A stretch of DNA of 64,000 nucleotides, from the IMG/VR virus record IMGVR_UViG_3300042508_000526. One strand, 5' to 3'. The stretch is from a virus. Taxonomy: Duplodnaviria; Caudoviricetes. Within the stretch, counting starts at the first letter, position 1. Every line of letters begins with the position of its first letter. Positions 13,089 through 63,307 of this stretch are shown in pieces. The notes below the pieces were generated by a model, which worked only from the letters and a program-made list of their open reading frames with translations, did not search any database and was not told the DNA's origin. A program made the translations under genes and the position numbers.

Positions 13089-14969
13089 TCAGGGCTTCCA
13101 CCCGCTAGTTGTACCCGTCACGCCAAACTGCTCGCCTTGGGCTAAAGACGGCACATAACTGCTGCCGGCTGTATCGCTACTTAACCCCCGGTGAACGCTA
13201 TTCATAAGCCCCTTTTCCTGATATGAGCCCAGCATTCGGGTCATCCAGTCAGGGTCGTTCGAAATGTTTGCCATGCCGCGCACCATTTCGGGTTGGAACG
13301 GCGGCGGCTCTTTGTGGGCTTGTATGTTTTTAATTCCGTACTTATTCAGGTTGTTCAATACCCCGCGCCCGATTTTTGTGCCGATCGAGTAGTGCAGCAC
13401 CGGTTTTTCGAGGTAATGGCCTGTTAGCGTTTGCGGGGCGCCAGCCACACTACCTTCACGCGGCGTCCAGTTTCTCTCCAACATCGCGTACGGCACAATG
13501 TCGTCCGGCGCATAATTCCCGTACTCGTCTGTGAGGCGCACGTGATTTACAAGTCCGCGGGATAGCAGCTCAATATTGCGGCGATGCGCTCCGATGCCGC
13601 TATTACCCATAACTTGGCGCATAGCTTGCACAAAATAGCGCCGCCCTTCGCCGATACCCTTGTGCTTTACGATTTCCGACGGATTCGGCATTCCGTCAGA
13701 TAGAACGTCGCCAGCCTCCAGATCATCACCCTTTTTGATCGCCAACGATCTTTCCGTCGGCACATAATGATCTTGGCCGTTAATTTGCACGTAGTATCCG
13801 CCCTGCGGAGCCGGCCTGATTTCTTGCACGCGGCCATCAGTTTGGGCGTGTGCGGCGCCGTCCGGGTATTTCTTCGGGACCTGTACAAGGGCGTTGAGCG
13901 CTTTAAAACCCGAGATTGCGCCAGCGCCTCCGACGCCGCCAGAGTGTTTCGAGCTAATCTGGCTCTGTGTGACAGGTTCAGACAGCGCTTGGGCCGCAGC
14001 GATACCCACATAATCTCCAGCCGGCGGTAAACGGCCTTTTTCTCTAAAACCGACATCGCGCGCGTATACGCCGCCATCAGCCGGGCCTCCTACGATTGGG
14101 CTACGCACAAGAATATCTTTTGTGCCCATCTCTTTGATGTCGCGCAGGATCTTGGGCGTTAATACGGTGTTGCGCTTGTACGGCCCGACAGGACGCGCAA
14201 GTAACGCGCCTTCGTTGTCCGGGTCGTCAACATCGGTCGGATAACCACGCTCTAGCGCATCAGCTTTTCGGTCTTCATCATCGTCGTCATCGTCGTCGGC
14301 CGTGACCAGCAAACGATGCGTCATCTGCGCGAGCTGTTTACCGTAGAAACCAGCGTCCGCAGTCGCCGTCTTAAGATCGATAACACCTTTGCGCGTGCCG
14401 AAAGCGCCGGCAAAATACTCGACAGGTCGTAGCCCCTGCCCGTAGCCGCGAAGAACGGGAATTGGAATTGGATCGCCGCGGTGATCCAGATACTGCATGT
14501 CTGCGCCGATCAGCGAATTCAATTGATATTTATTGCCAACGCCAGAGCCAGTGATTTGATGCACAAGCGGATTGTCTTGCGACTCGGCTTCTTTGTACAC
14601 CTTGTCGAGTAGTTCCGACTGCGTGTTAGCGGCTAATTCCAGCAGTTTTACTTGCTTTTCTTTGTCGCCCAATTTCTTGTTCGACAAGATTTCTTGCATT
14701 GCGTGCTGCGTGCGGATCTGCGCCGCTTTAACGGCCAATGTCGGCCGAATGTGCTTCAGGCTAAACGACAGCCCTGCGCTAGAATATCCCGCGTCCTTGC
14801 CGACGTCGTGCAGCCGCTTCATTACATCCCGGTACTTGTCGGGATGCTTTTGTGCTAGCTCAGTGGCTAGCGCGCCCATGCTTTTCTTGGTTAATACCCG
14901 ATCGTAATCCCGCATTTCTGGCGGGAGCGCGTCGTTAATCAGGATTTGACCAAGCGTTGTTTTAAGCAT
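13089..14969 (-). CDS. rpoC: DNA-directed RNA polymerase beta' subunit, C-terminal part
   Basis: LKTTLGQ; GYGQGLRPVEYFAGAFGTRKGVIDLKTATADAGFYGKQL (bridge helix); GIAAAQALSEPVTQSQISSKHSGG (trigger loop); RRNIELLSRG. Confidence 0.9.
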   Translation of the reverse strand: MLKTTLGQILINDALPPEMRDYDRVLTKKSMGALATELAQKHPDKYRDVMKRLHDVGKDAGYSSAGLSFSLKHIRPTLAVKAAQIRTQHAMQEILSNKKLGDKEKQVKLLELAANTQSELLDKVYKEAESQDNPLVHQITGSGVGNKYQLNSLIGADMQYLDHRGDPIPIPVLRGYGQGLRPVEYFAGAFGTRKGVIDLKTATADAGFYGKQLAQMTHRLLVTADDDDDDDEDRKADALERGYPTDVDDPDNEGALLARPVGPYKRNTVLTPKILRDIKEMGTKDILVRSPIVGGPADGGVYARDVGFREKGRLPPAGDYVGIAAAQALSEPVTQSQISSKHSGGVGGAGAISGFKALNALVQVPKKYPDGAAHAQTDGRVQEIRPAPQGGYYVQINGQDHYVPTERSLAIKKGDDLEAGDVLSDGMPNPSEIVKHKGIGEGRRYFVQAMRQVMGNSGIGAHRRNIELLSRGLVNHVRLTDEYGNYAPDDIVPYAMLERNWTPREGSVAGAPQTLTGHYLEKPVLHYSIGTKIGRGVLNNLNKYGIKNIQAHKEPPPFQPEMVRGMANISNDPDWMTRMLGSYQEKGLMNSVHRGLSSDTAGSSYVPSLAQGEQFGVTGTTSGWKP

Positions 14970-14970
14970 G

Positions 14971-15210
14971 TTACTTTGGCCAGATAATTTGCTGCATTGG
15001 CTTTGGCTTGAAATCAGATACGACAACCGTTTTTTCGATGCCAAGCGCCCGCAACATCGAATGGAAATCTGGCTCACCCGGCGTGGAATACACGATCGCT
15101 TCGTCTACTTGAATAGCGACGAAGATCGGATTGCCCAGATCGTCTTCAACTACAACACTGTGCGCTTTCTGCTCAGTAGGTTGTAATTTGTGCTGCGTTT
15201 TAACGAGCAT
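14971..15210 (-). CDS. small hypothetical protein between RNAP genes
   Basis: 79 aa ORF coupled to flanking genes. Confidence 0.6.
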   Translation of the reverse strand: MLVKTQHKLQPTEQKAHSVVVEDDLGNPIFVAIQVDEAIVYSTPGEPDFHSMLRALGIEKTVVVSDFKPKPMQQIIWPK

Positions 15211-15950: not shown

Positions 15951-18900
15951 TTACTTATTATCTTCCACAATATGAACCGGGGTGTCTACCTCTATTTCGC
16001 CGCGCCGATACGCCAGCACGGCGTCTTGCCGGTTTCTAAACACGCGCGGCTTGGCTTTGTTATTGATGCGGCTAGACGCCACGTATAAGCCAGTTTGATA
16101 GTCTTTATTGGGCACGTAGTGCGCCCGGAAGCTCGACGCCGCGAACAGATTTTTACTCGGCAGCATCTTGTCGACAGCTTCTTTTGCTGCATCTTCAGTC
16201 GACGGCACGTGATACTGCATAGCGTCGCCGTCAAAGTCGGCGCCGAATCCCTTTGTGATAACGGGGTTTACTTCCATGACCTTGTTCTTTGTTAGCCGCG
16301 GGTAGAACGCCATCATTCCATAGCGATGCAGAACCGGCGCGCGATTGATGATAATTGGCCGGGAATTCATTTGCTTGTCTAGCTCGGCCGCTGCTTCTTT
16401 GTTCTTTTTCTCAACCGCTTCCAATGCTTGCATGCGCGGTAACCCACGGCGCACTAGCCCGCGCACCACAAACGGCTTGTAGATATCCCACGCCTTTTCT
16501 TCGGGCAAGGCCACCTGATCCATGTCTAGATCGGGGTTTGGCGTAATTACCGCGCGGCCGACGAGGTCGACCGTCGAGCTTAATAATTTGCGCTGCACAG
16601 TGCCGTACTTTGGTGACGCCCCAAAAATGTGGCGTAAAAACCCTTTTACGTTTCGTTCAGCGTTTTTGGGCTGCTGCGGTTCGCCTAGGCCAGTCACGCC
16701 CTTCATTGCGTCGTACACACTGAGTCGCTCGTCGCCGTACTCAGCTAGTGCGCCGGACGTATCTTTCAGCGTGTTGTTGGCGTCCAGCAACTCCTTGTAT
16801 AAGTAATTTGCGTCAGCTACGAGCGGCAGCTTTTTGCTGCCCATCGTACTAACGGGCCGAAACAGAGGCGGCAGCACCGGCACGCGTGTTAGCATCCAGT
16901 CTTTTGGATGCACGCCGGTAGACTCCGCACTCTTTAAAAAGCCAAGCCGTCGTACCGCTGCGTCGCGTAACGTTTTTCGGCCGGATTTGATATCTTCGCG
17001 CGCCTGTTCAATGGCCTTTGGCAAATTGATTTTGGCTAGCGCGTCTGCAATCGCTTTTGGGCCGGTTTGGTCGCCAAGCTGGTCCGTACCCGCTAACACG
17101 CCGCGAAATTTTTTCTCCGTCAAGCCCAGCACGCGGCGGATCGGATCTTCCATCACCGGATTCGGCATGGGCTCGTGTAATGTTATTTTTGACCATCGGT
17201 TACCGCCGTGGCCGCCAGTAAGTGACTCGTCGAACAGGCCGCCCTTGATCGGCTTAAGCCTGCCCTTCCAGTCAACCGTCTCGGCGTTTTCGATTTCACG
17301 TGCGCCGGCTAATCCGTCGACGTCTTTGTCTGTAAGCGCCATAACGTTTGTGCGTGTACCGCTGCGCACAACGTTAATGCCAGACGCCTTCAGCTGCCCG
17401 ACAAACTTTTCGTATACGTGTGGGACGCGCGGAAGCGGCGGCGTGTAACCGGCCATGAACTGCGACCAGTACTCTGGATTAGCTTGGCCGCGCACCATCT
17501 TGGCGTCACGAATTACTTTGCCAGCGCCGTGCGACAGCAAGGCGCCAAGATCCAACATGCCAACCCGCTTAGCGCCTTCTGATCCACCCTTCGCCGGAGT
17601 GCCTTCCGCGGTGTATGCGCCCGTTGCACGCCCCTGCGCTTTGGACTCGCTGGTGTGATGCAGTTTCATAAAAAAGCGCGAGCCGGTAAGCACACCCGGA
17701 ATCTTTCGACCTGTCTCCGGGTCGGTTAAGTCTTCTGTATCAGATAACCCGTTCCTGTCTAATTCTTTCTGCGCAAACTCGACAAGATCTTTCTGGTCAT
17801 CGAAGTCTTTGATCTTAAACGGCTTGCCAGTCTTTGCGGCAACTTTGCCCAACGCCGCCTCAATAACCTGCGCCGGATTAACACGCGAAATTAAACCTAG
17901 CGGGCTAACCAGCACCTCGAACGGATTGCCGTCTTTGTCTTGCGGCATCTGGTCATCGGGGATGATGTCTGCCACAACGCCTTTATCGCCAAAGCGGCCT
18001 GTAAGCTTGTCGCCAACGTCCATCGCGGCTTGGTTTTTAACAACGACGCTCACGCCCTTTTTTGTGTGCACAACGTCCGTAACGACTCCGGGCGCATGGT
18101 GTTCCCACGTCACCGTCTCGTTGGTGAAGCTGCCCGCGCGGCCGCGATGCACTTTGCCGTAAACCGTGTCTTTTTTCTTAGCTACCAGCACCAGCGGATC
18201 GCCAAAGTTAACTGTGGTGCCCTTTTTAATTGCGCCCTGATCGTCAAAGTTGTCCAGCATCTTGCGCTCGTATTCGCGGGGGAAAAGACTCACGAACGCC
18301 TTTTTGCCAACGTGAGTGTTATCGTCCCATTCCGCTTCGTGCTGGTACATGTGCTCTGACGTAAGCCGCTTGGCCGCAGACTCGGAGATCACTACGGCGT
18401 CTTCGTAGTTTTTGCCGCGAAAGGGCAGATAAGCTACGCGCATGTTCAGACCCAGCGCGGCGCTCCCTTGATCGTCCGTAAAGTTCGACTTGGCAAGCAG
18501 CTGTCCCGGCTTTACGTAATCGCCCGGTTTAACCAGCGGCGTTTGATGTAAAAACGTTTTTCGGTTGTACGGCATCTCGTTGTACAGCTCGATCGTTTTC
18601 TTTTCGCCGTTCTTGTCGCGCAGCACGATCGCATCTGGCGTAACGTCGACAACCTGCCCGGCTTCAGCCGCTCTCGCCGCGCCAAGCTTTTCGCCCATCT
18701 CGTCTTCGTGCGATACGTTTTCATCGTCAAACTTGGCCGACTGCACAAGCGGCGTTTGGGCGCCAACGAGCGGAAGCGCCTGCGTAAACATGCGACTACC
18801 CATGATCACGCGCTGCCCTTTAACCATGGCTTTCATCGGCACCATGTTTGTGAGCGCAGAAAACGTCGAATCCATGTTTGACAGGCTGTACTGCGCATCT

Positions 18901-20378
18901 TTGCGGTCGACGTACTTCATCTTGCCGTTTACAAGCGCAGCCACTACCGGCATTTTGTTATTTGTCTCGCCCGGGAACACGAGCGGCGTATCCGCTAGTT
19001 CCTGCGGCGTCTTGTATTCCGTCTCACCTGTTTTCATGTTGATCACAGGCGTGTACACCTTCCCATCGGCGCCCTTCATAGCGCCCCGCGCAAACCGCAT
19101 ATCAACGCCAACTTTGCCGGACTCAGGCGTGCGCAGATAGTCGATAAAGCCCAGATGGCTGGGCTGCACACTGCGCGACTCTGCCGGCACGGCGTCGAGT
19201 GACGCGATGCCGCCTTCGCCCATTCGCGTAACGCGTGTTTGGTGGTCAAAAATTTCGGCGGGGTTGATCTCTTCAAGACTCGATCCAAGACCAGACCCGA
19301 TCAGCGCAGCAGAAATCGCTTTATCGAAGACGCCGCTCGGAATGTGATCAATCGACTTCTTCGCCGTGGCTTTCCACAGCAACTTGTTTAAACCCTGCCG
19401 ATCTTTGGTGAAGCGCTCAGAGATGAGATCCTCTGGCCCGACGACAGATTGAAACACCATGTTGTCGCGGTCGTCACTCTCGGCTTCGCGTCGGTTAACA
19501 GCTAGCAGCTTTTTTGTAATTGCCAGAATGGTGTCTGGCGTCATGTTTTTGTATTCGCTACCTAGCGTGCGGCGTGTGACTTCAGGATCAAGCTCTGTTT
19601 TGGCAAACTCTTCAAGCAACGCCTTGGCTTTGATCGTGGCGTCTGCTCCGGCGACTGGTTTATTCACAAAGCGACTGTACAGCTTGTCGAGCGTACCGGC
19701 GTCGCCTTTTTCCATATTGACGGCCGTTATCTCGTTGCCCCACGCCTCGCGGATCTGGCTGTCCGTAACGCCCATGGTTTTCAGCAGCGGCATTAGCGGA
19801 ATCTGCGCCTGTCCGACGCTGATTTTAAACACGCCCGTTTTCGGATCTAAAAAGTAACGGTGCGAGCGGCCTTTGCCCGGCAGTGTGTTTACGTGCGCTT
19901 CGATTTCGCCGTTGTCTTTTTCGCGGGTGAAGACGCCGGACTTAAGCCGCATCTGATGCGCCAGCGTGTACTCGACACCGCCGTTGACGAACGTGCCAGC
20001 ATCTGTCAGATAAGGCACATGCGCGATAGTTGCACGCTTCTGCCCAAGCGGCTGTCCGGTTTTGTTATCAACTAGCGCCCACGTACCCTGTAAACGACGC
20101 GACAGCGAGCCGCGCGAGAGCACTGCCTTTTTTTGGTCGGCCCGCGTAAATCGTTCGGGCCCCGTGTAGCCGACGTCTTGCAGCTGCAGCGTATACAAAT
20201 CGTTTTGCAGCGGGCGCAAACCCTGCGCGCTTGTCAGCGCCTGATTGAAGATGTTGTCGCGCATCGAGCCGATGTCGCCAAACGTCCGCATTGGTGGCGG
20301 CGTTGTCGGCGGCGCTGTCGGCACCGCGGGCGGCTGGCTGCTGAACTGCTTCAGCGGCGGCAATTCAGGCGCTGGCAT
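15951..20378 (-). CDS. rpoB: DNA-directed RNA polymerase beta subunit fused to beta' N-terminal half (catalytic DFDGD)
   Basis: beta motifs GTFVNGG, RTPESGKVG, GKNYEDAVVIS, GDKLTGRFGDKGVV, KLHH; then beta' motifs GLFD, VPVLPPLFRP, NRAPVLHR, GADFDGD. Confidence 0.92.
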   Translation of the reverse strand: MPAPELPPLKQFSSQPPAVPTAPPTTPPPMRTFGDIGSMRDNIFNQALTSAQGLRPLQNDLYTLQLQDVGYTGPERFTRADQKKAVLSRGSLSRRLQGTWALVDNKTGQPLGQKRATIAHVPYLTDAGTFVNGGVEYTLAHQMRLKSGVFTREKDNGEIEAHVNTLPGKGRSHRYFLDPKTGVFKISVGQAQIPLMPLLKTMGVTDSQIREAWGNEITAVNMEKGDAGTLDKLYSRFVNKPVAGADATIKAKALLEEFAKTELDPEVTRRTLGSEYKNMTPDTILAITKKLLAVNRREAESDDRDNMVFQSVVGPEDLISERFTKDRQGLNKLLWKATAKKSIDHIPSGVFDKAISAALIGSGLGSSLEEINPAEIFDHQTRVTRMGEGGIASLDAVPAESRSVQPSHLGFIDYLRTPESGKVGVDMRFARGAMKGADGKVYTPVINMKTGETEYKTPQELADTPLVFPGETNNKMPVVAALVNGKMKYVDRKDAQYSLSNMDSTFSALTNMVPMKAMVKGQRVIMGSRMFTQALPLVGAQTPLVQSAKFDDENVSHEDEMGEKLGAARAAEAGQVVDVTPDAIVLRDKNGEKKTIELYNEMPYNRKTFLHQTPLVKPGDYVKPGQLLAKSNFTDDQGSAALGLNMRVAYLPFRGKNYEDAVVISESAAKRLTSEHMYQHEAEWDDNTHVGKKAFVSLFPREYERKMLDNFDDQGAIKKGTTVNFGDPLVLVAKKKDTVYGKVHRGRAGSFTNETVTWEHHAPGVVTDVVHTKKGVSVVVKNQAAMDVGDKLTGRFGDKGVVADIIPDDQMPQDKDGNPFEVLVSPLGLISRVNPAQVIEAALGKVAAKTGKPFKIKDFDDQKDLVEFAQKELDRNGLSDTEDLTDPETGRKIPGVLTGSRFFMKLHHTSESKAQGRATGAYTAEGTPAKGGSEGAKRVGMLDLGALLSHGAGKVIRDAKMVRGQANPEYWSQFMAGYTPPLPRVPHVYEKFVGQLKASGINVVRSGTRTNVMALTDKDVDGLAGAREIENAETVDWKGRLKPIKGGLFDESLTGGHGGNRWSKITLHEPMPNPVMEDPIRRVLGLTEKKFRGVLAGTDQLGDQTGPKAIADALAKINLPKAIEQAREDIKSGRKTLRDAAVRRLGFLKSAESTGVHPKDWMLTRVPVLPPLFRPVSTMGSKKLPLVADANYLYKELLDANNTLKDTSGALAEYGDERLSVYDAMKGVTGLGEPQQPKNAERNVKGFLRHIFGASPKYGTVQRKLLSSTVDLVGRAVITPNPDLDMDQVALPEEKAWDIYKPFVVRGLVRRGLPRMQALEAVEKKNKEAAAELDKQMNSRPIIINRAPVLHRYGMMAFYPRLTKNKVMEVNPVITKGFGADFDGDAMQYHVPSTEDAAKEAVDKMLPSKNLFAASSFRAHYVPNKDYQTGLYVASSRINNKAKPRVFRNRQDAVLAYRRGEIEVDTPVHIVEDNK

Positions 20379-27854: not shown

Positions 27855-28118
27855 TTAGTGCGCAACTGAAAAAACGAAGCGAAGTGCCAGCGAAATCCAC
27901 GCAAGAAGTCCGCTGATAGCTAAAAAAACAATAATCGCAGTCAGCAGCGCCACGCTACCCAGTTTTTCGAACGGAATTTTTTTAAACAGGTTCCACGCGC
28001 GCAGGTAATCAATCGCGTTTGGGGGTTTAGGCGGCGGTGCGGGCGCAGGTACAGGCTCGGGTTTTTTGGTATCGATCCCTAGAGCTTTTTTGATCATGTC
28101 GAGCAGCGGTGTGGCCAT
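27855..28118 (-). CDS. small membrane protein
   Basis: Pro-rich linker then long C-terminal TM segment. Confidence 0.55.
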   Translation of the reverse strand: MATPLLDMIKKALGIDTKKPEPVPAPAPPPKPPNAIDYLRAWNLFKKIPFEKLGSVALLTAIIVFLAISGLLAWISLALRFVFSVAH

Positions 28119-29425
28119 TATTTCTTCCCCCAACGAGAGATAGTGTCAAAAATATCATTGCCGTAAAGCTGCACAATCTTGTCCGTGGGGTTCATTTGCG
28201 GCAGCGTGCCGTTAATCGCCATCTGCGCCACTTGATAACGATAGTTTGGGTCAAGCTGCGACCGGTACAAGTGTGATTTATGCCGCGCCGCCATAATAAA
28301 GTCGCCGCGCTGTTTGGCCTTGAGCAAATGATCGGTCACGTTTTGAAAAACGGGCTTACTGTGGTCGTAGATAAGCGGCTCGCGGAAGTTCAATAGGTTG
28401 CGAAACTGTTGCCCGTACACGCTAGCGCCAGCTTTCTCTATTTTTTGGACTTTTTTGTAGTAGTCGGGGTCTTCGGACAAGTGATCCTTGGCAATTTCTT
28501 TGGCAACTTGACCATTGTCTGTGTGTTCGCGCTCATGTTTAGCTCCTTCAGCTAAAGCAGGTTCAGAAAAATCCCGATCGGGTAAATTATCGGCTTCACC
28601 GCCCGGTAACAGGTCTTTTTGTCCCGAACGGGAAAGTGCGTTTGGCTGCTGTTTTTCTGCGGCAGATACCTTCTCGGCGGCGCAGCGGCCGGATTTTTTA
28701 CACACGCACGTTTCAGGGCACATGCACGGACCGGAGCAGCCACAGTCGTACGTGGTCTTATCATCCGCGGCGGCTTTGAGTTCTCCCCTGCTGATGGGGT
28801 TACTAAACCTATGCTCGTCGGCGCTTTCGGCCGAGGTTTCGGAACCCTTGGCCGTGCCGTTGTCGCGTAAAACGCCTTTGCGCCGGACAGCGAATGTGAT
28901 GTGAAACGGTTGATCGTCCTTGGGCAGCGCCGAAAGGCCGTAACTCTTGCGCAAGGCAGACAGCGCCGGACTGAGCACATGTAGCGCCCATACTTTGCTG
29001 ACGCCGCGCACGTTTTTGACGTCAATTTCTTTTAGGCCGCCCAGCGTATAGCCGAACATGTGACCGCGTTCGTTAATCTTGTCGCCGCCGATTGCTTCTA
29101 CTTCAGCCGCCGTCATCACCGAGATGTGCGCATTGACCAACTCGCCATCGACGTTTGGTACATTCATCACGCCGGCAGTCGGCAGCTCAGTGCCGGGCTC
29201 GGTAAGGGCGTCAAATACACCGCGGACGAGCGCGTTGGGCACCGCCAGCAGCAACCAGCCGCTTTTTGCGAGATATAGCCGACCCGAAAGCGGGTAGCTC
29301 GTGGCGGCGTTCTTGTCGCCGCTCATATACAGCCAGCCTAGCGCGTTGCCAGCAGCGTAGGCGGGGTGCTCGCGGAAGTATTCCGAGTCCCACGCGAGCG
29401 GATCTAAAGCGGATAGCGTATCCAT
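28118..29425 (-). CDS. multi-module protein: 2H phosphoesterase + Cys-rich module + DUF5661-like module
   Basis: AHISVM and FHITFA (two HxS/T motifs); CGCSGPCMCPETCVC; EREHTDNGQVAKEIAKDHLSEDPDYY; modules separated by KNAA/KAAA/KAGA. Confidence 0.75.
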   Translation of the reverse strand: MDTLSALDPLAWDSEYFREHPAYAAGNALGWLYMSGDKNAATSYPLSGRLYLAKSGWLLLAVPNALVRGVFDALTEPGTELPTAGVMNVPNVDGELVNAHISVMTAAEVEAIGGDKINERGHMFGYTLGGLKEIDVKNVRGVSKVWALHVLSPALSALRKSYGLSALPKDDQPFHITFAVRRKGVLRDNGTAKGSETSAESADEHRFSNPISRGELKAAADDKTTYDCGCSGPCMCPETCVCKKSGRCAAEKVSAAEKQQPNALSRSGQKDLLPGGEADNLPDRDFSEPALAEGAKHEREHTDNGQVAKEIAKDHLSEDPDYYKKVQKIEKAGASVYGQQFRNLLNFREPLIYDHSKPVFQNVTDHLLKAKQRGDFIMAARHKSHLYRSQLDPNYRYQVAQMAINGTLPQMNPTDKIVQLYGNDIFDTISRWGKK

Positions 29426-29441
29426 GCGGGACTCGTCCTTA

Positions 29442-29517
29442 TGGCTGCCTGAGTAGGACTCGAACCTACGACCCGGCGGTTAACAGCCGCCTGCTCTACC
29501 AACTGAGCTATCAGGCA
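29442..29517 (-). tRNA. tRNA-Asn(GUU), CCA encoded
   Basis: canonical cloverleaf: TGCCTGA/TCAGGCA acceptor, GCTC-AGTTGGTA-GAGC D arm, CTGTTAA loop, TTCGAGT T loop, G-CCA end. Confidence 0.95.
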
Positions 29518-29523
29518 ATTTTG

Positions 29524-29670
29524 TCACGGGTGCGTAGTCATCGTTGGCATGTCAGTATGCCCGTGACTGTGCGCTACTGCGGCTAGCGCAGACACGAACA
29601 GAAGCAGACAAAACATAGCGGACGCGCCCCACGCCGCTACGCTCAATTGTTTACGAATTGTCATTGTCAT
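29524..29670 (-). CDS. small membrane peptide
   Basis: 48 aa with one TM helix, overlapping end of holin-like gene. Confidence 0.4.
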   Translation of the reverse strand: MTMTIRKQLSVAAWGASAMFCLLLFVSALAAVAHSHGHTDMPTMTTHP

Positions 29671-30007
29671 GCTCGTGATCTCCTTGACGATCGCGCTCGT
29701 GCACAATAGTGACTTTGATACCAGCTCCGGCTAGCAAAGATATCACAAGATCGGTCATTGTGGAGCCGCCCATACCGGCGAGCACACAGATTCCGATCAA
29801 ACCGTAAACGTTCTCTGCTTTTCGGTAGTTTTGGTACCAAATCAGCGCAATGGCCAAACCCAGAAAACCGGCGTTGAGCATGGCGCTGACAACAGCTAGT
29901 TTAGATAACTTCTTGGCAAACCGCAAAAAGGTCGCCAAGCCTGCAAAAGCAGCAGCGCCAAATGCGCTAAAAAGCACCGACAACGAATGTAGTGTTTCGT
30001 CGCCCAT
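29651..30007 (-). CDS. holin-like protein (3 TM)
   Basis: 118 aa, three hydrophobic helices, charged C-terminus; LAGMGG motif seen in LydA-type holins. Confidence 0.55.
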   Translation of the reverse strand: MGDETLHSLSVLFSAFGAAAFAGLATFLRFAKKLSKLAVVSAMLNAGFLGLAIALIWYQNYRKAENVYGLIGICVLAGMGGSTMTDLVISLLAGAGIKVTIVHERDRQGDHEHDNDNS

Positions 30008-30039
30008 GTTTAATAACTGCCGACTGTGTAACGATTTGT

Positions 30040-30320
30040 GAAATGTGAATGTACGCCAAAAGCCCCTGCGATCCCCTGTCCGCAGGTCCGTGTCCCGACC
30101 GAAGTCAGGACTCCGCAGCAACTTTCAAGGACAAAATTTATCCTGTGTGGCATTTGCTGCTCCTCCGCCCGCGTGCCCGACAGAATCTGACCGCGGAACC
30201 TGTAACCCCGTTGGCATCCATGCCGCCGAAGAAACGCCTAACCAGCCGGCCACCACGACTAACTTTTGACGCACATACAGTAATTTTAACACTCGCGGTA
30301 TGCAGTAACTACAGACCGCT
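30040..30320 (-). ncRNA. structured non-coding leader/RNA candidate upstream of holin-like gene
   Basis: GTCCTGAC-TTCG-GTCGGGAC, GCAGCAA/TTGCTGC, CCTGCG/CGCAGG and GCGGT/ACCGC stems; no convincing ORF. Confidence 0.4.
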
Positions 30321-30356
30321 AAACAGATTTTCAAAGAACAAAAATACCGGCGCAAT

Positions 30357-30815
30357 TTAGATATAACGCGCCGGTTCGTTACTGCATAGCCCGGCTGGCT
30401 CGTAATTATCCAGCCAGCTGGGCTCGGCCAGCTCGGGAAACGCCGCGATTGAGCGCGGCGAAAGTTCGCGCGGCGGCATCGTCCAGATAAATTGCGCCGT
30501 GGTCAGCGACAGCGGAATTTCGCCGCCCATAAACGCGTGCGCGCCAATTGTGCACAGCGCGTCGAGCGTTTCGGCGTTGTAACAGCGCGACCAGACCCGC
30601 TGCTGGGAAAAGAAACTGGGCGGCGCGACACTGAAACCATTTTCGTTGGGCAGCACAAATCCGCCATTTAAAAGCTGCACATCGACGCAAACATGCCAGC
30701 CAGCTTTCAAACTCGCCTGCACATATTTCAGCGTATTTTCCAGCTCTGGTTGCCGGCCGTCGATGTTGCCCAAGTGCGAAATGATAATCCCGTCGAAGCG
30801 CGCCCTGCGTCCCAT
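30357..30815 (-). CDS. glycerophosphodiester phosphodiesterase-like protein (degenerate motifs)
   Basis: IISHLGN..PELENTLKYVQASLKAGWHVCVDV resembles SHRGN..ENT..A...G...EIDV with R and E replaced. Confidence 0.6.
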   Translation of the reverse strand: MGRRARFDGIIISHLGNIDGRQPELENTLKYVQASLKAGWHVCVDVQLLNGGFVLPNENGFSVAPPSFFSQQRVWSRCYNAETLDALCTIGAHAFMGGEIPLSLTTAQFIWTMPPRELSPRSIAAFPELAEPSWLDNYEPAGLCSNEPARYI

Positions 30816-30901
30816 ACACTGGCCTTTTTTTTGTTAACAGCCGCCACAATTGCATGTGACGTATCGTACCGACGTTCGTGACCTATGTCCACGAACCTGT
30901 G

Positions 30902-31918
30902 TCACAAAATCTTGGCCGCAATGAGACAACCGCGCGCGACCGCATGCAGCGGATCATTGGCGTGACGTACTTCTTTGACCGGCAGCGGAAAACCATGCTC
31001 GTCAAGTTTCTTTTGAAACATTTCAACGAAGCCTTTAGCGCGTGTCGTGCCGCCGGCCAATGTTATCAGAATCGGCTCTTTGAACTTGGGCAGAGCTTTG
31101 TGGCCCTGTAACGCGTGCGCAAGCATCTTCACGGTGTAATCGATCAGACGCTCGTAGTACACGCTAACAGCAGACAAAATTGCGCTGTCACTCTGCTCGC
31201 CAATCACAAACGTGCCGTGCTCTTTCTCTGCCTGCACAACTGAATCCGGCTCATTTGTGGCAACGGCCGTCATGCGGTCAATCCAGTCGCCGGACTTCGT
31301 TGTCGAAAACAGCACGGTGGGTTCGCCGTTGAGCATGACACAGCAATTCACCATGCCCGCGCCCCACGACAAGCCAATGCCGGTGTAATCATCGTTTTCC
31401 AGCTCCGAGTAGCACAGCGCTTCGGCTTCGTTAATCGCCCGGGCCGTGTAACCCTGCTCCGCCAGCACCGTGCGCACAACGTCTTCGTGATACGCGACGT
31501 CAAAATCATCGTCTTCCTGATCGACGGGCTGGGCCGGCACGCAAAAGATCAGCTTTTCGTGCGGCTCGCTGGCGGTGCCGACAACTTCCTTGAGGATAAA
31601 CGCCAGCACGCGCTTGGCTTCTTTTTCCTTGGGGCTAACCACGCCGCGATACATGGGGCGCTTGGCCGAGTCATTGCGCTCAACGGCCTTTTCGATGGCG
31701 TCTTGGCCGAGAATAATAAACGTGCCGTCGGCGTCGCGCACAAATACCTTACCCTGTAGACCTTTTTCGATCATCTTGGTGGCCACGGGGGTCGTCGGCT
31801 TGATGACGTAAAACGCATCGCGGAAATCTTTGTATTGAACGCTGGCCGCGACGGCAGAGTCCAGCGCGTCTTGCGCCAGCACGATAAACGATGTTCCGAC
31901 GTCTAAACCCTTAGCCAT
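30902..31918 (-). CDS. actin-like ATPase (MreB/FtsA/ParM superfamily)
   Basis: GLDVGTS (phosphate 1), EAEAL (connect 1), SWGAGMVN (phosphate 2), LAGGTT (adenosine), DPLHAVARGC (connect 2). Confidence 0.88.
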   Translation of the reverse strand: MAKGLDVGTSFIVLAQDALDSAVAASVQYKDFRDAFYVIKPTTPVATKMIEKGLQGKVFVRDADGTFIILGQDAIEKAVERNDSAKRPMYRGVVSPKEKEAKRVLAFILKEVVGTASEPHEKLIFCVPAQPVDQEDDDFDVAYHEDVVRTVLAEQGYTARAINEAEALCYSELENDDYTGIGLSWGAGMVNCCVMLNGEPTVLFSTTKSGDWIDRMTAVATNEPDSVVQAEKEHGTFVIGEQSDSAILSAVSVYYERLIDYTVKMLAHALQGHKALPKFKEPILITLAGGTTRAKGFVEMFQKKLDEHGFPLPVKEVRHANDPLHAVARGCLIAAKIL

Positions 31919-31920
31919 AA

Positions 31921-32037
31921 CTACTTACCTTTCTTCTTGAGTTTCTTTTCCAGCTGCTTAATGTACTTGTTTTGCTTCTGCAGCTTATCGCACTGTTTTT
32001 TAATCTTTTTTTTCGTCCACTTGTCCCAAAACGACAT
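31921..32037 (-). CDS. 38-aa Lys-rich peptide (not in ORF track)
   Basis: MSFWDKWTKKKIKKQCDKLQKQNKYIKQLEKKLKKKGK; ATG overlaps upstream TGA (TGATG) and stop lies 2 nt before the actin ATG. Confidence 0.6.
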   Translation of the reverse strand: MSFWDKWTKKKIKKQCDKLQKQNKYIKQLEKKLKKKGK

Positions 32038-32369
32038 CACTTACCTTTCAACTGCGCCAGCTTTGACACTGACGAATTAATATCATCTTGCGTCTGCGTG
32101 GTTTTGCCAAGCGTGACATCCTGTGTTTTTTGCATGCTGGACGTGTTAATCTCGCCCACGTACTTGCCGGCGTTGATTTCTATTTTAGCTTTTTCAGCCG
32201 CAGGATTGTCGCGGAGCGCCGCCCGTAACGTATTGGCCGCGGGCGCCACGTTCTCAGCGCGCTGAACTAGCGTAACGTACAGTAAATTCAGCCGCCCGGT
32301 CAGATAGCCCAGCGCAAACCCGGTAAAGAGCAGCACCAATGCGTTGGTATACAGCGAATACAATTCCAT
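32037..32369 (-). CDS. membrane-anchored protein upstream of actin-like gene
   Basis: N-terminal TM helix; C-terminus DINSSVSKLAQLKGK. Confidence 0.7.
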   Translation of the reverse strand: MELYSLYTNALVLLFTGFALGYLTGRLNLLYVTLVQRAENVAPAANTLRAALRDNPAAEKAKIEINAGKYVGEINTSSMQKTQDVTLGKTTQTQDDINSSVSKLAQLKGK

Positions 32370-32377
32370 GACTTTGC

Positions 32378-32815
32378 TCACTGTGCGTCCTGATCTGCAA
32401 ATGTTTTGGGCTGCCACACAGTATACGGGTTTACGGCCTTGGGCGTGAAGATCGGCAGCGTCTCGCACACATCGAACTGGTCTTCGAGTTTTTTAAACAC
32501 TTTTGGATCAGTCGCGCCGACGCCCTCTGGCAAATCGTCAATCCAGATGTCTATCTTGTAGCCCAGCTGCTGCGTTTTTTCGCGCTTTGGAGAGTGGTTG
32601 CAGAAGATACACGCGCTGAGCAGTTTGTACGTCTCCTCGCCAAAGACCTGCGCCAACTGCAGACGATTAGCCGTCGAGTCCGTGCGGCCAGTCACGCACA
32701 ACACACGATGCCCACGGGCTGTAAATAACTTAATCGCCATGCGCCACATATCGACGTCGCTGGTGAACGTGCGATCGAAGTCGATGGCGATTGTGGTCGT
32801 GCGGTATGGGTTCAT
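32378..32815 (-). CDS. HAD-superfamily phosphatase
   Basis: IAIDFDRTF (motif I), VTGR (II), WIDD (IV). Confidence 0.85.
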
Positions 32816-33279
32816 GCTGTCTTGAGCACGTGCCACGCGTTGGCCCATTTGCTGGCGCGATCAAACGTGATCCAGTGCCGGCGGAAATCCAACTCAGCCG
32901 CGGGCACAATAAAAAACCGCTTGAGCCGCACGTGTACAAAAATAAACACGTCTACGTCAGTGGGCCGATACGCCCGCCGTTTGGTCATAGCCGCTGAACC
33001 ACGCCGCGTCTTGCACGCCTTGCTTTTGCATAGCGAAAACCGTGTGGAATCCGGTCGCGCGGTATTAATCGTCGTGGTCGCTTTAACTTGAATGCGTTTC
33101 ACCACATCGTCATAGCCAGATACGAGATCGTACCCGATGTCGATCAGCGGCACGCACGGCACGATCTTATGCCGTAACAACTTTGCAATCGCCAGCGAAA
33201 CGCCTTCGGCGCCGATGGCAATCGCGTTTGGCCATGTTTCTTCTTGTATTCGCACGGGCAAACAACTCCTTTTGTTCAC
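32812..33279 (-). CDS. PD-(D/E)xK endonuclease (PDDEXK_5-like)
   Basis: GAEG...YDLV...RIQVKATT...[12 protein letters not shown]. Confidence 0.8.
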
Positions 33280-33563
33280 TCGTCAAAAAAGTCATCGGAC
33301 AAGATTTTTCCGCCAGAACCAATCCACGCCAGCGTGACAAGAAAACCGAGCCCCGCCGCGACGGCGCCAGCGATTTTGCCGCAAAGTATCGCGACCGTCA
33401 GAATTGCTTGCCAGTTCTGCTCGTTAGCCGCAAACGGCAAAGCGTGCCAGATTACAACACCGATAAACCAAAACATTAGCGTGCGCAGGAATAAACGTTC
33501 CAAAAAACGCTCTCGCGCCCACTCACGATCGAGCCGCTGTCGTGTTTCTTCGTCAATCGCCAC
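33276..33563 (-). CDS. membrane protein
   Basis: two TM helices; GTG start after GGAG. Confidence 0.55.
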   Translation of the reverse strand: MAIDEETRQRLDREWARERFLERLFLRTLMFWFIGVVIWHALPFAANEQNWQAILTVAILCGKIAGAVAAGLGFLVTLAWIGSGGKILSDDFFDE

Positions 33564-33879
33564 GGCTCGACTCCAGCGCGGCAATGCGGTCTTTTAACTT
33601 GTCGTTCTCTGTCCGTAACGCCTGCACGTTTGCAGCCGACGTCACAGTTAAATTCGCGAGCGTGGCTTGCAGCTCTGTAATTTGTGCATCTAGTCCGGGC
33701 GTTGAGACTGGCTGCACCGCAGGAGGCGGCGTAAACCGCGGCGCTGCGTTTGCCAGCATTTGCGTTAAATCAGCCACGTGGAGCACGAGCCGGTCTAACT
33801 CGTCGGCGGCAGCGGTGTTGAGCCGCGCATCGACTAATCCTGTCGCGTCGCGGAGCGCCTGACTGAGGGGATGTAGCAT
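33553..33879 (-). CDS. coiled-coil hypothetical protein
   Basis: heptad-rich C-terminus; start uncertain. Confidence 0.55.
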   Translation of the reverse strand: MLHPLSQALRDATGLVDARLNTAAADELDRLVLHVADLTQMLANAAPRFTPPPAVQPVSTPGLDAQITELQATLANLTVTSAANVQALRTENDKLKDRIAALESSRGD

Positions 33880-33899
33880 CGGATGTTCCATAAAGTGCG

Positions 33900-34140
33900 G
33901 GCTGGATACTGGCAACAAAGCCGCTCGTGCTCTGTTTGTGCTCGTATGACGTAGGGGCGAAGGAGGCGCTTGGACACGTTTAAAACCCAGCCACCAGTAT
34001 CCGGCACCACGGCTATCCAAGTGTGGTGCGAACGCTGTTGGGACAGACAACGTTCTGCGGCGTCACTGCCTGACCGGCGCTGTGTAAGTGGGAGTGCCTT
34101 ACACGCGGCCAATATCAAACCACCATGCCGCAACTTTCCC
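33900..34140 (-). ncRNA. structured non-coding RNA/leader candidate
   Basis: 13-bp helix GGATACTGGTGGC/GTTGCCAGTATCC, three upstream hairpins, possible 8-bp pseudoknot CTTGGATA/TGTCCAAG. Confidence 0.45.
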
Positions 34141-34151
34141 GCACAAGACGT

Positions 34152-34685
34152 TCACCTATCCATAATGTTTAGTTTACGCAGCTGACGTTTGTCAACATCA
34201 GCCAGAATTCTTTGAATGTGTTGCGCGTCTTCATAACTGTCTTGCAGTTGATTTTCGTAAAACACTTCGAGGTACTTGGCGGCCACTTGATCGTCTAGCG
34301 ATCCGGCCTGCTCAATCCGCTTGGCGTAATTAACAACTACTTGGCGCTCCAGCGTATGCGCCTCAATCAGAATGTCTTCCACGCGCGTATAAGTCGCAAA
34401 CGTGTGCCCGCCCGCTGCCGGCAAGACAAAGTTAAAGCCATGCAGGCAGTCGAGAAACTGCTGCACGTGCTCCAGCTCTCCCTTGGCCGCGTCGGTCAGG
34501 AACTCCTTGTATTCCTCGGCGTGCAGGCCTGTGACAGCGCTGGAGTGATACAAGTAAAACGCGAGATGGGTCCACTCGTTCTGCAGGTCCGCGTTCATCA
34601 GGGTTAAGAACTGCGGCAGCGTAAAACGGCCGGGTTCGCCTTCAGGACCGGGCAGCCCCGGATCGTCGATGTGTTCGTTTGTCAT
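34152..34685 (-). CDS. ferritin/bacterioferritin-like di-iron protein
   Basis: LQNEWTHLAFY, GELEHVQQF, LERQVVVNY, ENQLQDSYEDAQHI four-helix pattern. Confidence 0.75.
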   Translation of the reverse strand: MTNEHIDDPGLPGPEGEPGRFTLPQFLTLMNADLQNEWTHLAFYLYHSSAVTGLHAEEYKEFLTDAAKGELEHVQQFLDCLHGFNFVLPAAGGHTFATYTRVEDILIEAHTLERQVVVNYAKRIEQAGSLDDQVAAKYLEVFYENQLQDSYEDAQHIQRILADVDKRQLRKLNIMDR

Positions 34686-34686
34686 A

Positions 34687-35316
34687 TCAACTGCTCCTAC
34701 CTTCTGGGAAATGGGTTAACTGCAACGCGTGTAGCTCAGCCGCACTCGCCGGCGGAGCTATTATGTCCTTGACTGCTAAATTCCAGCAATCCTCTTTGAA
34801 ACACCAGCCGTTGTGACTTGTCGGATCAAGCTCGCCCTTTAGATATTTTTGCGCCGAGCTAAAAAACAGTGGCTTGGGCATAAAGCCAAGAATCCACGCT
34901 TTTTCGCACAGGTGATGCACGCGCACGAAACAATACCAGTCGCAATCTTGGTGAATGTTTTTGTCGCACACGGTTACGAAATAGTGTGCCTGCGGCGGCT
35001 TGGGATATGTCTGCGACTTTGTTTTTACGTCAATGCGGCCGTGCGCTGTATTAATCAGCCGCAGATCCCAGTGATAGGGATTGTCGGCCGGCGTGCGCTC
35101 AAACTGCCCCGGATAGTAGTCGTACAGCACCTCTTCGCCGAGCATGCCGATAAAGTCACCGGAGCCGCTCCGAATCGAGTTTTTTAGGTGTGACCGCCCA
35201 CGCCGCTGCAGCATGTGCTTGAACTCATCGTCGCGAGCCAGTGCGCGCTCCAGCTGATCGGAGGTAACAGCCACCTCGATCAGCCCGGTATTGGGCTCGA
35301 CGCCGCAAACGTCCAT
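34687..35316 (-). CDS. putative PD-(D/E)xK nuclease-fold protein
   Basis: GMLGEEVL, WDLRL, IDVKTK. Confidence 0.6.
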   Translation of the reverse strand: MDVCGVEPNTGLIEVAVTSDQLERALARDDEFKHMLQRRGRSHLKNSIRSGSGDFIGMLGEEVLYDYYPGQFERTPADNPYHWDLRLINTAHGRIDVKTKSQTYPKPPQAHYFVTVCDKNIHQDCDWYCFVRVHHLCEKAWILGFMPKPLFFSSAQKYLKGELDPTSHNGWCFKEDCWNLAVKDIIAPPASAAELHALQLTHFPEGRSS

Positions 35317-35331
35317 GTCGCACTCCTGTAA

Positions 35332-36084
35332 TTAAGCCACATACGGTTCTAGGACAGCCGGGTCGAACTCCGCGTCGTAATACCGTTTGTCGTGGTGATC
35401 AAAGGCCGCGTCGCGCATAACACACCACTCCAGCCGGGGCCATGTCAGCTCTGATACTTCTGCCCATTCGCTGTACTGATAGCCGTGCATGAGAAACAAG
35501 CACGTAAGAAACACGTCCGGCGCGTAGTACACGTTGTCGTCGAGAATGTTCAGCAGGCGCATGTCCGTGCCGCGACGACAACAATCCAGAAACAACTCAC
35601 GACTAAAGCAGCCGCCACCACACAGACCGTAGCAGTACTGTTTTGTCGTGCCGTGAATCAAATTGAAATACTTGTTCAACTGCGCGGATACGGGATTTGA
35701 CCGGGCGCCAGCGCATGCGGTCGGCGGAAATTGCAGCGCGCGACGTTTAGTCATCACGTCTTCTTCGAGCAGCACCACCCAGTCGCTTGTGACTGTCTCG
35801 CAGTGGGTCCGCATGCGATTTAGATATGTGTCCGCCGCAGCTTTGCCCGTGAAATAGCCGCCGGGAGCCACCTGCTCAGCAGCATGCGTATAGCGCAGGT
35901 TGAACTTCCGGGCAAAAGCCGAGAAGTCCTGCCCATTGTCTGACACAAAAGAAATGTCAGCCTCGGGGTAATGCGCGCGAAACGAGCTGAGCGCCTCGTA
36001 TACCGCGCGCGGCCGGGCATAACATTGCATGAAAGCCGACAGCGTCATGCCGCAAAGTGTAACCGCGCTTATTATCGCTGGCAA
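35332..36084 (-). CDS. glycosyltransferase family 2-like protein
   Basis: FVSDNG, WVVLLEEDV (DxD-like) GT-A pattern. Confidence 0.65.
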   Translation of the reverse strand: MPAIISAVTLCGMTLSAFMQCYARPRAVYEALSSFRAHYPEADISFVSDNGQDFSAFARKFNLRYTHAAEQVAPGGYFTGKAAADTYLNRMRTHCETVTSDWVVLLEEDVMTKRRALQFPPTACAGARSNPVSAQLNKYFNLIHGTTKQYCYGLCGGGCFSRELFLDCCRRGTDMRLLNILDDNVYYAPDVFLTCLFLMHGYQYSEWAEVSELTWPRLEWCVMRDAAFDHHDKRYYDAEFDPAVLEPYVA

Positions 36085-36091
36085 TACACTT

Positions 36092-36796
36092 TTACAGTTT
36101 TTTGAGCACCGCGCTTACGATGGGATGGCGTACAACGTCACTATGGGCAAAATGCACAGTATCAATACCCGCCACACCTTTTAACTTCTGCACAACTTCG
36201 TTTATTGGCGGAGGTGAAAACGGTAAATCACTCTGATGCGGGTCGCCGGTAATAACCATCTGCGTGTTCTGCCCAAAACGCGACAACAACAGTTTGAGCT
36301 GCATATACGTCGCATTCTGGGCTTCGTCAAATACAACGACTGAATCGTTAAACGTACGGCCGCGCATATAACACAGCGGCGCCAACACGATGGCTTTATT
36401 TACAAATTCGCGCTTGGGATTAAATTTGCCCAGCAGCGTGTCCATCGTGTCGTACAGCGGTTGCATGTACGGATTGACTTTTTCGCCAAATGAGCCGGGA
36501 AGATAGCCGAGTTTTTCACCGGCATCAACGATCGGCCGCGTAAGAATGATCTGGCTTTTGCGCTTGGCGAGGATCTCATTGATCGCATACGCCATCGCCA
36601 AAAAAGTCTTGCCAGACCCCGCTGACCCAAGCAGAAATGTGACGTGGTTATCCAGTAACGTTTGCCACGCGCGTTTTTGACTGTCGGTGCGCCATTCGAT
36701 TTCACACGGCGCTAATGCGACTTTTGCCCGCTCCTGTTGATCTTGTTTTTTCTTTGCCTTTTTCTCCGCTCTGTTAGACGAGCGCGATGTAGCCAT
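36092..36796 (-). CDS. phoH: PhoH family ATPase
   Basis: GSAGSGKTFLA, LTRPIV, LGYLPG, MRGRTF, DEAQN, ITGDPHQSDL, DVVRHPIV. Confidence 0.95.
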   Translation of the reverse strand: MATSRSSNRAEKKAKKKQDQQERAKVALAPCEIEWRTDSQKRAWQTLLDNHVTFLLGSAGSGKTFLAMAYAINEILAKRKSQIILTRPIVDAGEKLGYLPGSFGEKVNPYMQPLYDTMDTLLGKFNPKREFVNKAIVLAPLCYMRGRTFNDSVVVFDEAQNATYMQLKLLLSRFGQNTQMVITGDPHQSDLPFSPPPINEVVQKLKGVAGIDTVHFAHSDVVRHPIVSAVLKKL

Positions 36797-61689: not shown

Positions 61690-61775
61690 TTCGTTTCCCT
61701 TTTGTGAAAAATGAAACCAGCACGGCCACAATTGTATTAGAAACTCACCGCAAAACGTTGAGTTTCCAATATGAA

Positions 61776-61849
61776 TAACCCGGGTGGGAGTCGAACCCAC
61801 AACAAGTAGATCCTAAGTCTACCGCCTCTGCCAATTGGGCTACCGAGTC
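61776..61849 (-). tRNA. tRNA-Leu(UAG) with short variable loop; no CCA
   Basis: GACTCGG/CCGGGTT acceptor, GTAGA-CTTAGGA-TCTAC anticodon arm, 5-nt variable region, GTGGG-TTCGACT-CCCAC. Confidence 0.85.
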
Positions 61850-61922
61850 ATTAAATGTGGCTGGTTGAGAAGGCAACCATTTAACCAAGCCCAACACCTT
61901 GCGAATGCGTTGGCACCACACA

Positions 61923-61994
61923 TGACCCCACGGGGATTCGAACCCCGATTATCGCCGTGAAAGGGCGGTGTCCTAACCATTAGACGATGGGGCC
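61923..61994 (-). tRNA. tRNA-Glu(UUC); no CCA
   Basis: GGCCCCA/TGGGGTC acceptor, CTTTCAC loop, CGGGG-TTCGAAT-CCCCG. Confidence 0.92.
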
Positions 61995-63123: not shown

Positions 63124-63226
63124 GATGGTCTCCTTATCATCCCTGATGTACAGCCGCACAGCGACTGTGTCCACTGAACAGCAAGTTACACCGTGTAACC
63201 TGCTTGCAGCCAAACGCTAGCTGCAA

Positions 63227-63299
63227 TGGCCGCGGGGGGACTCGAACCCCCGCCCTCCTGCGTGTAAAGCAGGCGCTCTACCAACTGAGCTACGCGGCT
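63227..63299 (-). tRNA. tRNA-Val(UAC); A1-C72 mismatch; no CCA
   Basis: GCTC-AGTTGGTA-GAGC, CCTGC-TTTACAC-GCAGG, GGGGG-TTCGAGT-CCCCC. Confidence 0.92.
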
Positions 63300-63307
63300 A
63301 CCGTACG

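Follow-up and report, generated by a model that had tools for sequence, protein, structure and literature searches.

Three abutting genes in a large phage genome

Within a complete IMG/VR virus record of 203,206 bp that has direct terminal repeats, the stretch of DNA analysed here (the window, 64,000 nucleotides) spans bases 80270-144269. Nearly all of the window's long ORFs lie on its minus strand. Three of these ORFs abut one another on that strand. The first to be read (32037..32369) has an ATG start and a TGA stop and encodes a 110-aa bitopic membrane protein, hereafter the partner, that ends in KLAQLKGK. It is followed by a Lys-rich ORF of 38 aa (31921..32037), which also starts with ATG, begins MSFWDKWTKKK and ends KKLKKKGK, and then by the gene for a 338-aa actin-like ATPase of the Volactin family that is related to MamK, BeeR and MreB (30902..31918). 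The ATG of the 38-aa ORF overlaps the stop of the partner gene as TGATG, and the actin ORF starts 2 nt past the stop of the 38-aa ORF. A sequence-only reading of this DNA had described a set of three coupled genes at this place, with a TM-anchored protein and a Lys-rich peptide ending as given above, and our analysis confirms all three ORFs, both endings, the strand and the abutting arrangement.

The window's minus strand also carries four tRNA genes (Asn-GTT, 29442-29517; Leu-TAG, 61775-61850; Glu-TTC, 61923-61994; Val-TAC, 63226-63300) and two large RNA polymerase beta/beta'-like genes (15951-20378 and 13089-15077) that match PHROG families of RNA polymerase beta. Among cultured phages, the closest relatives by these polymerase genes, at ~31% identity, are Salmonella phage Arash and Vibrio phages D181, D148 and D69; phiKZ-like phages are absent among the 15 matches listed. 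No PhuZ-type tubulin system was found in this genome, the tubulin profile PF00091 giving no match at E up to 0.1 across the complete 203-kb record. Nearby minus-strand genes encode a 2H-phosphoesterase/DUF5661 protein (28118-29425), a PD-(D/E)XK nuclease (32812-33279), a ferritin-like protein (34152-34685) and PhoH (36092-36796). The gene just upstream of the partner gene (32378-32848) matches PHROGs 4919 and 4256, which are of unknown function, and accompanies the module of partner and actin genes in two other loci (L054 and L092). Neither tandem nor centromere-like repeats occur at positions 28000-36000 of the window, and the sequences flanking the module show no convincing promoter or terminator.

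The third gene encodes a Volactin-family actin

The actin-like protein matches the Pfam family Volactin (PF25216) over its full length, residues 1-335 aligning with profile positions 1-321 at 215.6 bits (E 1.6e-63; gathering cut-off 35 bits), and a scan of the complete genome gave the same match. Profiles of other actin families score below their cut-offs: the MreB Pfam profile PF06723 reaches 20.8 bits (cut-off 27) over the short stretch 67-131, the MamK NCBIfam profile NF040964 reaches 29.2 bits, far below its cut-off of 400, the BeeR NCBIfam profile NF053558 reaches 27.5 bits against a cut-off of 530 and covers only the C-terminal 80 residues, and the NCBIfam mreB profile scores 12 against 366. 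PHROGs hold nothing for this protein. The AlphaFold (AF2) model, built on 67 relatives, is of high confidence (pLDDT 95.9, pTM 0.92) and displays the four-subdomain fold with phosphate 1, connect, phosphate 2 and adenosine motifs, which bears out the earlier assignment of an actin-fold ATPase. Its top Foldseek matches are BeeR (8r2n), MamK (5ljv) and MreB (4czj), each with probability 1.00 and with TM-scores of 0.66-0.72, versus 0.52 for PilM. When the family profile was compared with the PDB, the matches were MamK (2e-16), BeeR (1e-10) and MreB (3e-8).

The nucleotide-binding motifs read GLDVGT (phosphate 1), SWGAGMVN (phosphate 2) and AGGT (adenosine), a catalytic-type Glu lies in INEAEA, and D6, G8, E164, G186, G188, G289 and G290 are invariant in the alignment of relatives. 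The phosphate-2 region differs from that of MamK in having S-x-G-A-G-x-x-N in place of D-I-G-A-G-T-T-D, such that an Asp is replaced by Ser and the next Asp by Asn. Because this Ser is common to at least 90% of the aligned relatives, we regard the change as a trait of the family rather than a defect. The actin gene is under purifying selection (pN/pS ~0.1).

Volactin, the founder of the family, is a cell-shape factor; it assembles into dynamic filaments that contact the membrane at their tips, and its binding factors are unknown (PMC10869688). Of the nearest solved relatives, MamK polymerises, and BeeR does so with ATP (PMC11929497). Since volactin forms filaments and BeeR polymerises, it is reasonable to expect from homology with volactin, BeeR and MamK that the phage actin would polymerise as well.

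Relatives of this actin are encoded on 257 IMG/VR contigs, and searches of a large protein database and of a representative library gave more than 2,000 matching proteins and 964 matching clusters at 50% identity, respectively. The gene is found in no cultured phage. A megablast search of the region against GenBank phages gave no match, and tblastn gave only two huge uncultured phages, at 33% identity. We examined the loci on 80 of the 257 IMG/VR contigs, whose actins are 73-100% identical and many of which are 190-205 kb in length. Short actin-bearing contigs were also seen among GTDB genome contigs (L099-L103), in MAGs labelled Alphaproteobacteria, Flavobacteriales, Thermoplasmatales and Saccharibacteria. 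Because these labels belong to unrelated phyla and the contigs are most likely mis-binned phage fragments, they give no host signal.

Some relatives depart from the single-domain plan. Two that are 44-57% identical to the window's actin (P0177 and P0189) carry a LAGLIDADG homing-endonuclease intein near residues 180-210, around the phosphate-2 region, and others (P0196, P0220, P0226, P0233, P0235, P0239, P0240, P0181 and P0197) begin with a ParB-type HTH or consist of two actins in tandem (~730 aa). Natural partner-actin fusions were absent among 41 N-terminally extended relatives; the additional sequence in these proteins is a ParB-type HTH domain, an acidic or low-complexity stretch, or a second actin domain.

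A conserved membrane protein precedes the actin gene

All 80 related loci have a homologue of the partner upstream of the actin gene, and its stop usually falls 1-2 nt before the actin ATG. The 55 database homologues of the partner are 37-65% identical, compared with 73-100% for the actin, and the partner thus evolves much faster than its neighbour. The family has no match in Pfam (E below 0.1), PHROG or NCBIfam, and the ESM Atlas holds only unnamed sub-0.9 clusters for both the partner and the 38-aa peptide.

All of these proteins share one layout, in which an N-terminal hydrophobic helix is joined by a variable Pro/Ala-rich linker to a conserved C-terminal region. In the window, the TM segment (32280..32348, minus strand) contains the invariant G21-x-x-x-G25-R26 (GYxxGRxD), and the C-terminal region (residues 62-110; 32040..32186, minus strand) presents, in order, IxIDxxKxVxxIxT, LGKTT and DDIxSSVSKLAQLK. 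The invariant columns are G21, G25, R26, I65, V71, T76, G88, K89, D95, D96, I97 and V101-K108, with the invariance of residues 101-108 scored among 45 database homologues. Between loci, the codons of the C-terminal motif differ by synonymous changes, and the constraint is therefore on the protein sequence.

Modelled alone with AF2, the partner has a confident helix at residues 2-39 (pLDDT 86-96 for the TM helix) and a remainder of pLDDT ~55 in which a short helix is formed at 102-108. The conserved C-terminal region, apart from this short helix, is predicted to be disordered by itself, as is commonly seen in segments that fold only once bound. From its pattern of conservation, the C-terminal region is a candidate actin-binding region, and the topology of the protein is predicted to be N-out, C-in. 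The GxxxG pattern may serve helix-helix packing or self-association in the membrane.

At larger distances the partner becomes harder to follow. One locus at 53% actin identity (L084) has a 120-aa upstream protein of the same plan (partner HMM E 1.4e-13), and two at 38-39% (L088 and L087) have small N-terminally anchored proteins ending DDIQSSLDALKSLKRG or EEAVEKLRKLLGR, tails that resemble DDIxSSLxxLKxLK with marginal HMM support (E 0.037 and 0.33). In still more distant loci, either a small ORF with a basic tail and no clear TM helix is present or no counterpart can be recognised; L086, L089 and L082 have no TM segment. By these sequence comparisons, once actin identity falls below ~50%, homology of the partner lacks secure statistical support.

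The shared KGK ending carries the actin ribosome-binding site

The ends of the partner gene and the peptide gene carry an identical run of 11 nt, GAAAGGTAAGT, and the KGK ending that the two proteins share is real and not due to chance. The sequence-only reading held that KGK is an actin-binding motif common to both proteins and that the 38-aa peptide, being free, is a competitor or regulator of the membrane anchor, a proposal that the translational coupling of the three genes and the purifying selection on the peptide (see below) would also favor. The junctions of the related loci point to a different explanation.

At the junction before the actin ATG (31919..31932, minus strand; AAA GGT AAG TAG TT), a Shine-Dalgarno sequence, AAAGG, is present at 31928-31932, within the closing K-G-K codons of the peptide gene. 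Genomes that have no peptide contain a single copy of this junction, CAG YTR AAR GGN AAR TAR NN ATG. The window's clade contains it twice, at the ends of the partner gene and the peptide gene, and the duplicate at the end of the partner gene (32037..32048, minus strand; AAA GGT AAG TGA) overlaps the peptide ATG. Nearly all of the 47 distinct upstream sequences have AAAGG, AAGGAG or TAGGAG 7-10 nt before the actin ATG, and the element is present whichever gene precedes. Where another small ORF precedes the actin gene, the element overlaps the stop of that ORF (AAA TAG GAG) and the encoded protein ends NTK or YMK. The end residues of the partner itself vary (KGK, KGR, KAK, KRS, KGN, MKG) while AAAGG persists and SKLAQLK stays fixed, as illustrated by AAG GCG in L004 (KAK) and AAA AGG AGC in L059 (KRS).

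Because an AAAGG-type element is kept whichever gene precedes and the amino acids vary, we conclude that the Lys-Gly codons are the Shine-Dalgarno sequence of the actin gene. Judged from these alignments, KGK is the actin ribosome-binding site written into the end of the preceding gene and not a shared binding motif. Conservation of KGK independent of position was not found, the ends of both the partner and the peptide being variable. We would add a general caution that identical short C-terminal tails on adjoining genes may reflect an embedded ribosome-binding site and no protein motif.

The 38-aa ORF is a genuine but accessory gene

The peptide is Trp-capped and strongly cationic and has only 38 aa. 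The reading frame is kept in four diverged copies, among which pN/pS is 0.06-0.23 and synonymous sites are close to saturation; because the ORF is under purifying selection, we consider it a real gene. Its sequence occurs letter for letter in the ESM Atlas, so some pipeline has called it.

Homologues were sought by a degenerate DNA pattern scan and a motif search. The peptide is present in the slot between the partner and actin genes only in the window and in L002-L004, L007, L009 and L018, and it ends GK only where it directly abuts the actin gene. The homologue in L018 lies directly after the partner, before a 47-aa hydrophobic ORF, and ends KQK; that in L054 lies 1.7 kb upstream of the actin gene and ends KKKKK; and that in L026, which has 52 aa, lies 2.2 kb upstream and ends RKKK. 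L092 was picked up through the peptide motif alone and not placed with respect to an actin gene; there the homologue forms the N-terminus of a 116-aa ORF. BLASTP gives no alignment between the peptide and the partner, and the peptide lacks the DDIxSSVSKLAQLK motif.

Genomes with and without the peptide are interleaved among the closest relatives (actin at least 88% identical) on an actin tree without support values, and this interleaving suggests that the peptide was gained once and lost several times. Deletion between the duplicated junctions may be one possible route of loss. The peptide is an accessory, movable and repeatedly lost element that stands outside the core module. Conservation of the trio, which the sequence-only reading suggested checking, thus holds for the partner and actin genes and not for the peptide, which is absent from the slot in most loci, and the idea of the free peptide as a competitor or regulator is not supported, given its lack of similarity to the partner and its patchy occurrence among close relatives.

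The slot between the partner and actin genes is empty in most loci; otherwise it holds the peptide, the 47-aa hydrophobic ORF, both of these, or an ORF of ~95 aa. It is a hotspot for small ORFs, as seen in L018-L020, L026, L042 and L069 (~150 nt upstream of the actin gene) and in L046 and L072. The 47-aa hydrophobic mini-protein is conserved, and the ~95-aa ORF is rich in Ala and Pro.

Proposed function and alternatives

The two-gene module of partner and actin is a real finding, and we propose that it probably produces a membrane-tethered phage filament. The conserved C-terminal motif of the partner, which would be cytoplasmic and end in a short amphipathic basic helix, is expected to be disordered alone and to fold onto the actin-like protein. 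In this way the partner would anchor ATP-dependent filaments to the inner membrane and perhaps also nucleate or cap them there, and its GxxxG helix would allow it to self-associate in the membrane. Such filaments would be the phage's own positioning scaffold during infection. The 38-aa ORF would have settled in the variable slot that separates these genes. For this joint reading, in which the two genes form a tethered-filament module, the 38-aa ORF is genuine but dispensable and KGK is a Shine-Dalgarno sequence plus a stop, we estimate a probability of roughly 0.55. Tight gene coupling alone can mean co-expression without contact between the products. The membrane-tethered cytoskeleton of the earlier reading is retained here in part: the conserved, coupled pair of TM protein and actin stands, with tethering its most plausible role, and the KGK motif and the peptide competitor are given up.

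One alternative is that no filament is formed and the actin-fold ATPase is a peripheral subunit of a membrane complex like PilM-PilN or FtsA-FtsN, docked on the short cytoplasmic peptide of the bitopic protein and with a role at the envelope, for instance in DNA entry, assembly or lysis timing. PilM and FtsA are indeed among the Foldseek matches (ranks 14 and 30), the build of the partner, a bitopic protein that bears a short conserved peptide in the cytoplasm, is reminiscent of PilN and FtsN, and the phosphate-2 Asp is missing. However, the proteins that match best in sequence and structure, MamK, BeeR and MreB, all form polymers, with the TM-scores given above favoring them over PilM, and volactin polymerises in vivo (PMC10869688). 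The MamK-like length of the protein and its alignment also suggest that the 1C domain arrangement of FtsA and PilM is lacking. We consider such a complex unlikely.

The module could also be directed at the host, with the phage actin co-assembling with or displacing host MreB, or reshaping the cell or blocking its division, and the partner acting as a RodZ-like anchor. The MreB profiles score below their cut-offs (Pfam, 20.8 versus 27; NCBIfam, 12 versus 366), and the partner shows no similarity to RodZ and belongs to no Pfam family at E below 0.1. These results weigh against a host target. In its favor are that volactin is a cell-shape factor (PMC10869688), that MreB is among the closest folds and that RodZ is likewise a bitopic partner of MreB (PDB 2wus among the Foldseek matches). 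We hold this role, too, to be improbable.

DNA segregation of the ParMRC or AlpAC type, acting on the phage genome or a plasmid prophage, is very improbable: the Volactin family can be coupled to DNA, since other members have an N-terminal ParB-type HTH (P0196 and its relatives) and salactin partitions DNA, but the 28-36 kb stretch of the window has no tandem or centromere-like repeats, the adjoining partner is a membrane protein without a DNA-binding domain in Pfam or NCBIfam, so that neither element of a type II partition system is found nearby, and direct terminal repeats together with RNA polymerase-like genes are more typical of a virulent large phage. The shared KGK tail with a competing peptide is already largely refuted, and we accord it scarcely any probability, given that the Lys-Gly codons are the actin Shine-Dalgarno sequence, that non-abutting peptide homologues end otherwise, that the partner's last residues vary beside a fixed SKLAQLK, that peptide and partner are dissimilar and that the closest clade interleaves genomes with and without the peptide in the slot.

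The membrane-tethered filament that we favor can be extended to a broader proposal, which is possible but doubtful and which we offer tentatively. A large, globally distributed clade of ~200-kb uncultured phages may have its own membrane-nucleated actin cytoskeleton, in which an oligomeric GxxxG anchor would use a C-terminal peptide, folding as it binds, to capture the ends of filaments, and the filaments would organise replication or assembly in large phages that have no tubulin. The use of an adaptor encoded upstream or at the N-terminus, a membrane anchor in this phage and a ParB-type HTH in other relatives, might then hold as a general rule throughout the Volactin family and lead to the membrane factor still missing for archaeal volactin.

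Comparison with known systems

Phage cytoskeletons are known mainly from PhuZ tubulin and one prophage actin with a DNA adaptor. PhuZ of the nucleus-forming jumbo phages is, like the protein described here, a cytoskeletal NTPase of a large phage, and the window's genome has RNA polymerase beta-like genes as well; PhuZ has a tubulin fold, whereas the window's protein has an actin fold and its genome no tubulin, and "actin counterpart" can be used of it by analogy. A phage actin with an adaptor has reportedly been published already, in AlpC/AlpA of the Corynebacterium prophage CGP3. In AlpC-AlpA and ParM-ParR, as here, the gene for a (pro)phage- or plasmid-borne actin-like ATPase lies beside a small adaptor gene, the likeness of AlpC and ParM to the window's actin being judged by fold ranking only (ParM is at Foldseek rank 46). 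Those adaptors link the filament to DNA, which they bind at alpS or parC sites; the window's adaptor is membrane-anchored and there are no repeats nearby.

MreB-RodZ, PilM-PilN and FtsA-FtsN follow the same principle that we propose here, an actin-fold ATPase bound by a short conserved cytoplasmic segment of a single-pass protein. In RodZ, PilN and FtsN the binding segment is N-terminal and the TM segment follows, whereas the window's partner has its TM segment at the N-terminus and its motif at the extreme C-terminus, and no sequence similarity was detected between the partner and these systems. MamK and BeeR, bacterial actins whose filaments have been solved, are the nearest solved structures and profile matches and have the four-subdomain fold in common with the window's protein, which differs from them in having no magnetosome context, no BeeR-type disordered N-terminal extension and a replaced phosphate-2 Asp.

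A literature search returned papers on volactin, BeeR, AlpC/AlpA and PhuZ and none describing the partner-actin module. The arrangement reported here, a Volactin-family actin with a membrane anchor, differs from those of PhuZ and the prophage actin and is kept across hundreds of uncultured large-phage contigs and in more distant lineages. If the tail of the partner binds the filament, the module would offer a compact two-protein system in which to study how actin-like filaments attach to membranes.

The closest comparison is with volactin itself (HVO_2015 of Haloferax volcanii; PF25216), which belongs to the same Pfam family and shares the S-x-G-A-G-x-x-N phosphate-2 region. Volactin comes from an archaeon and the window's protein from a bacterial-type tailed phage; volactin acts in disk-shape formation, and the phage actin would have a role in infection. 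Whereas volactin has no known binding factor, the phage actin has a dedicated, translationally coupled membrane partner, and binding of the filament by the partner's tail would provide a concrete lead to volactin-binding factors in archaea.
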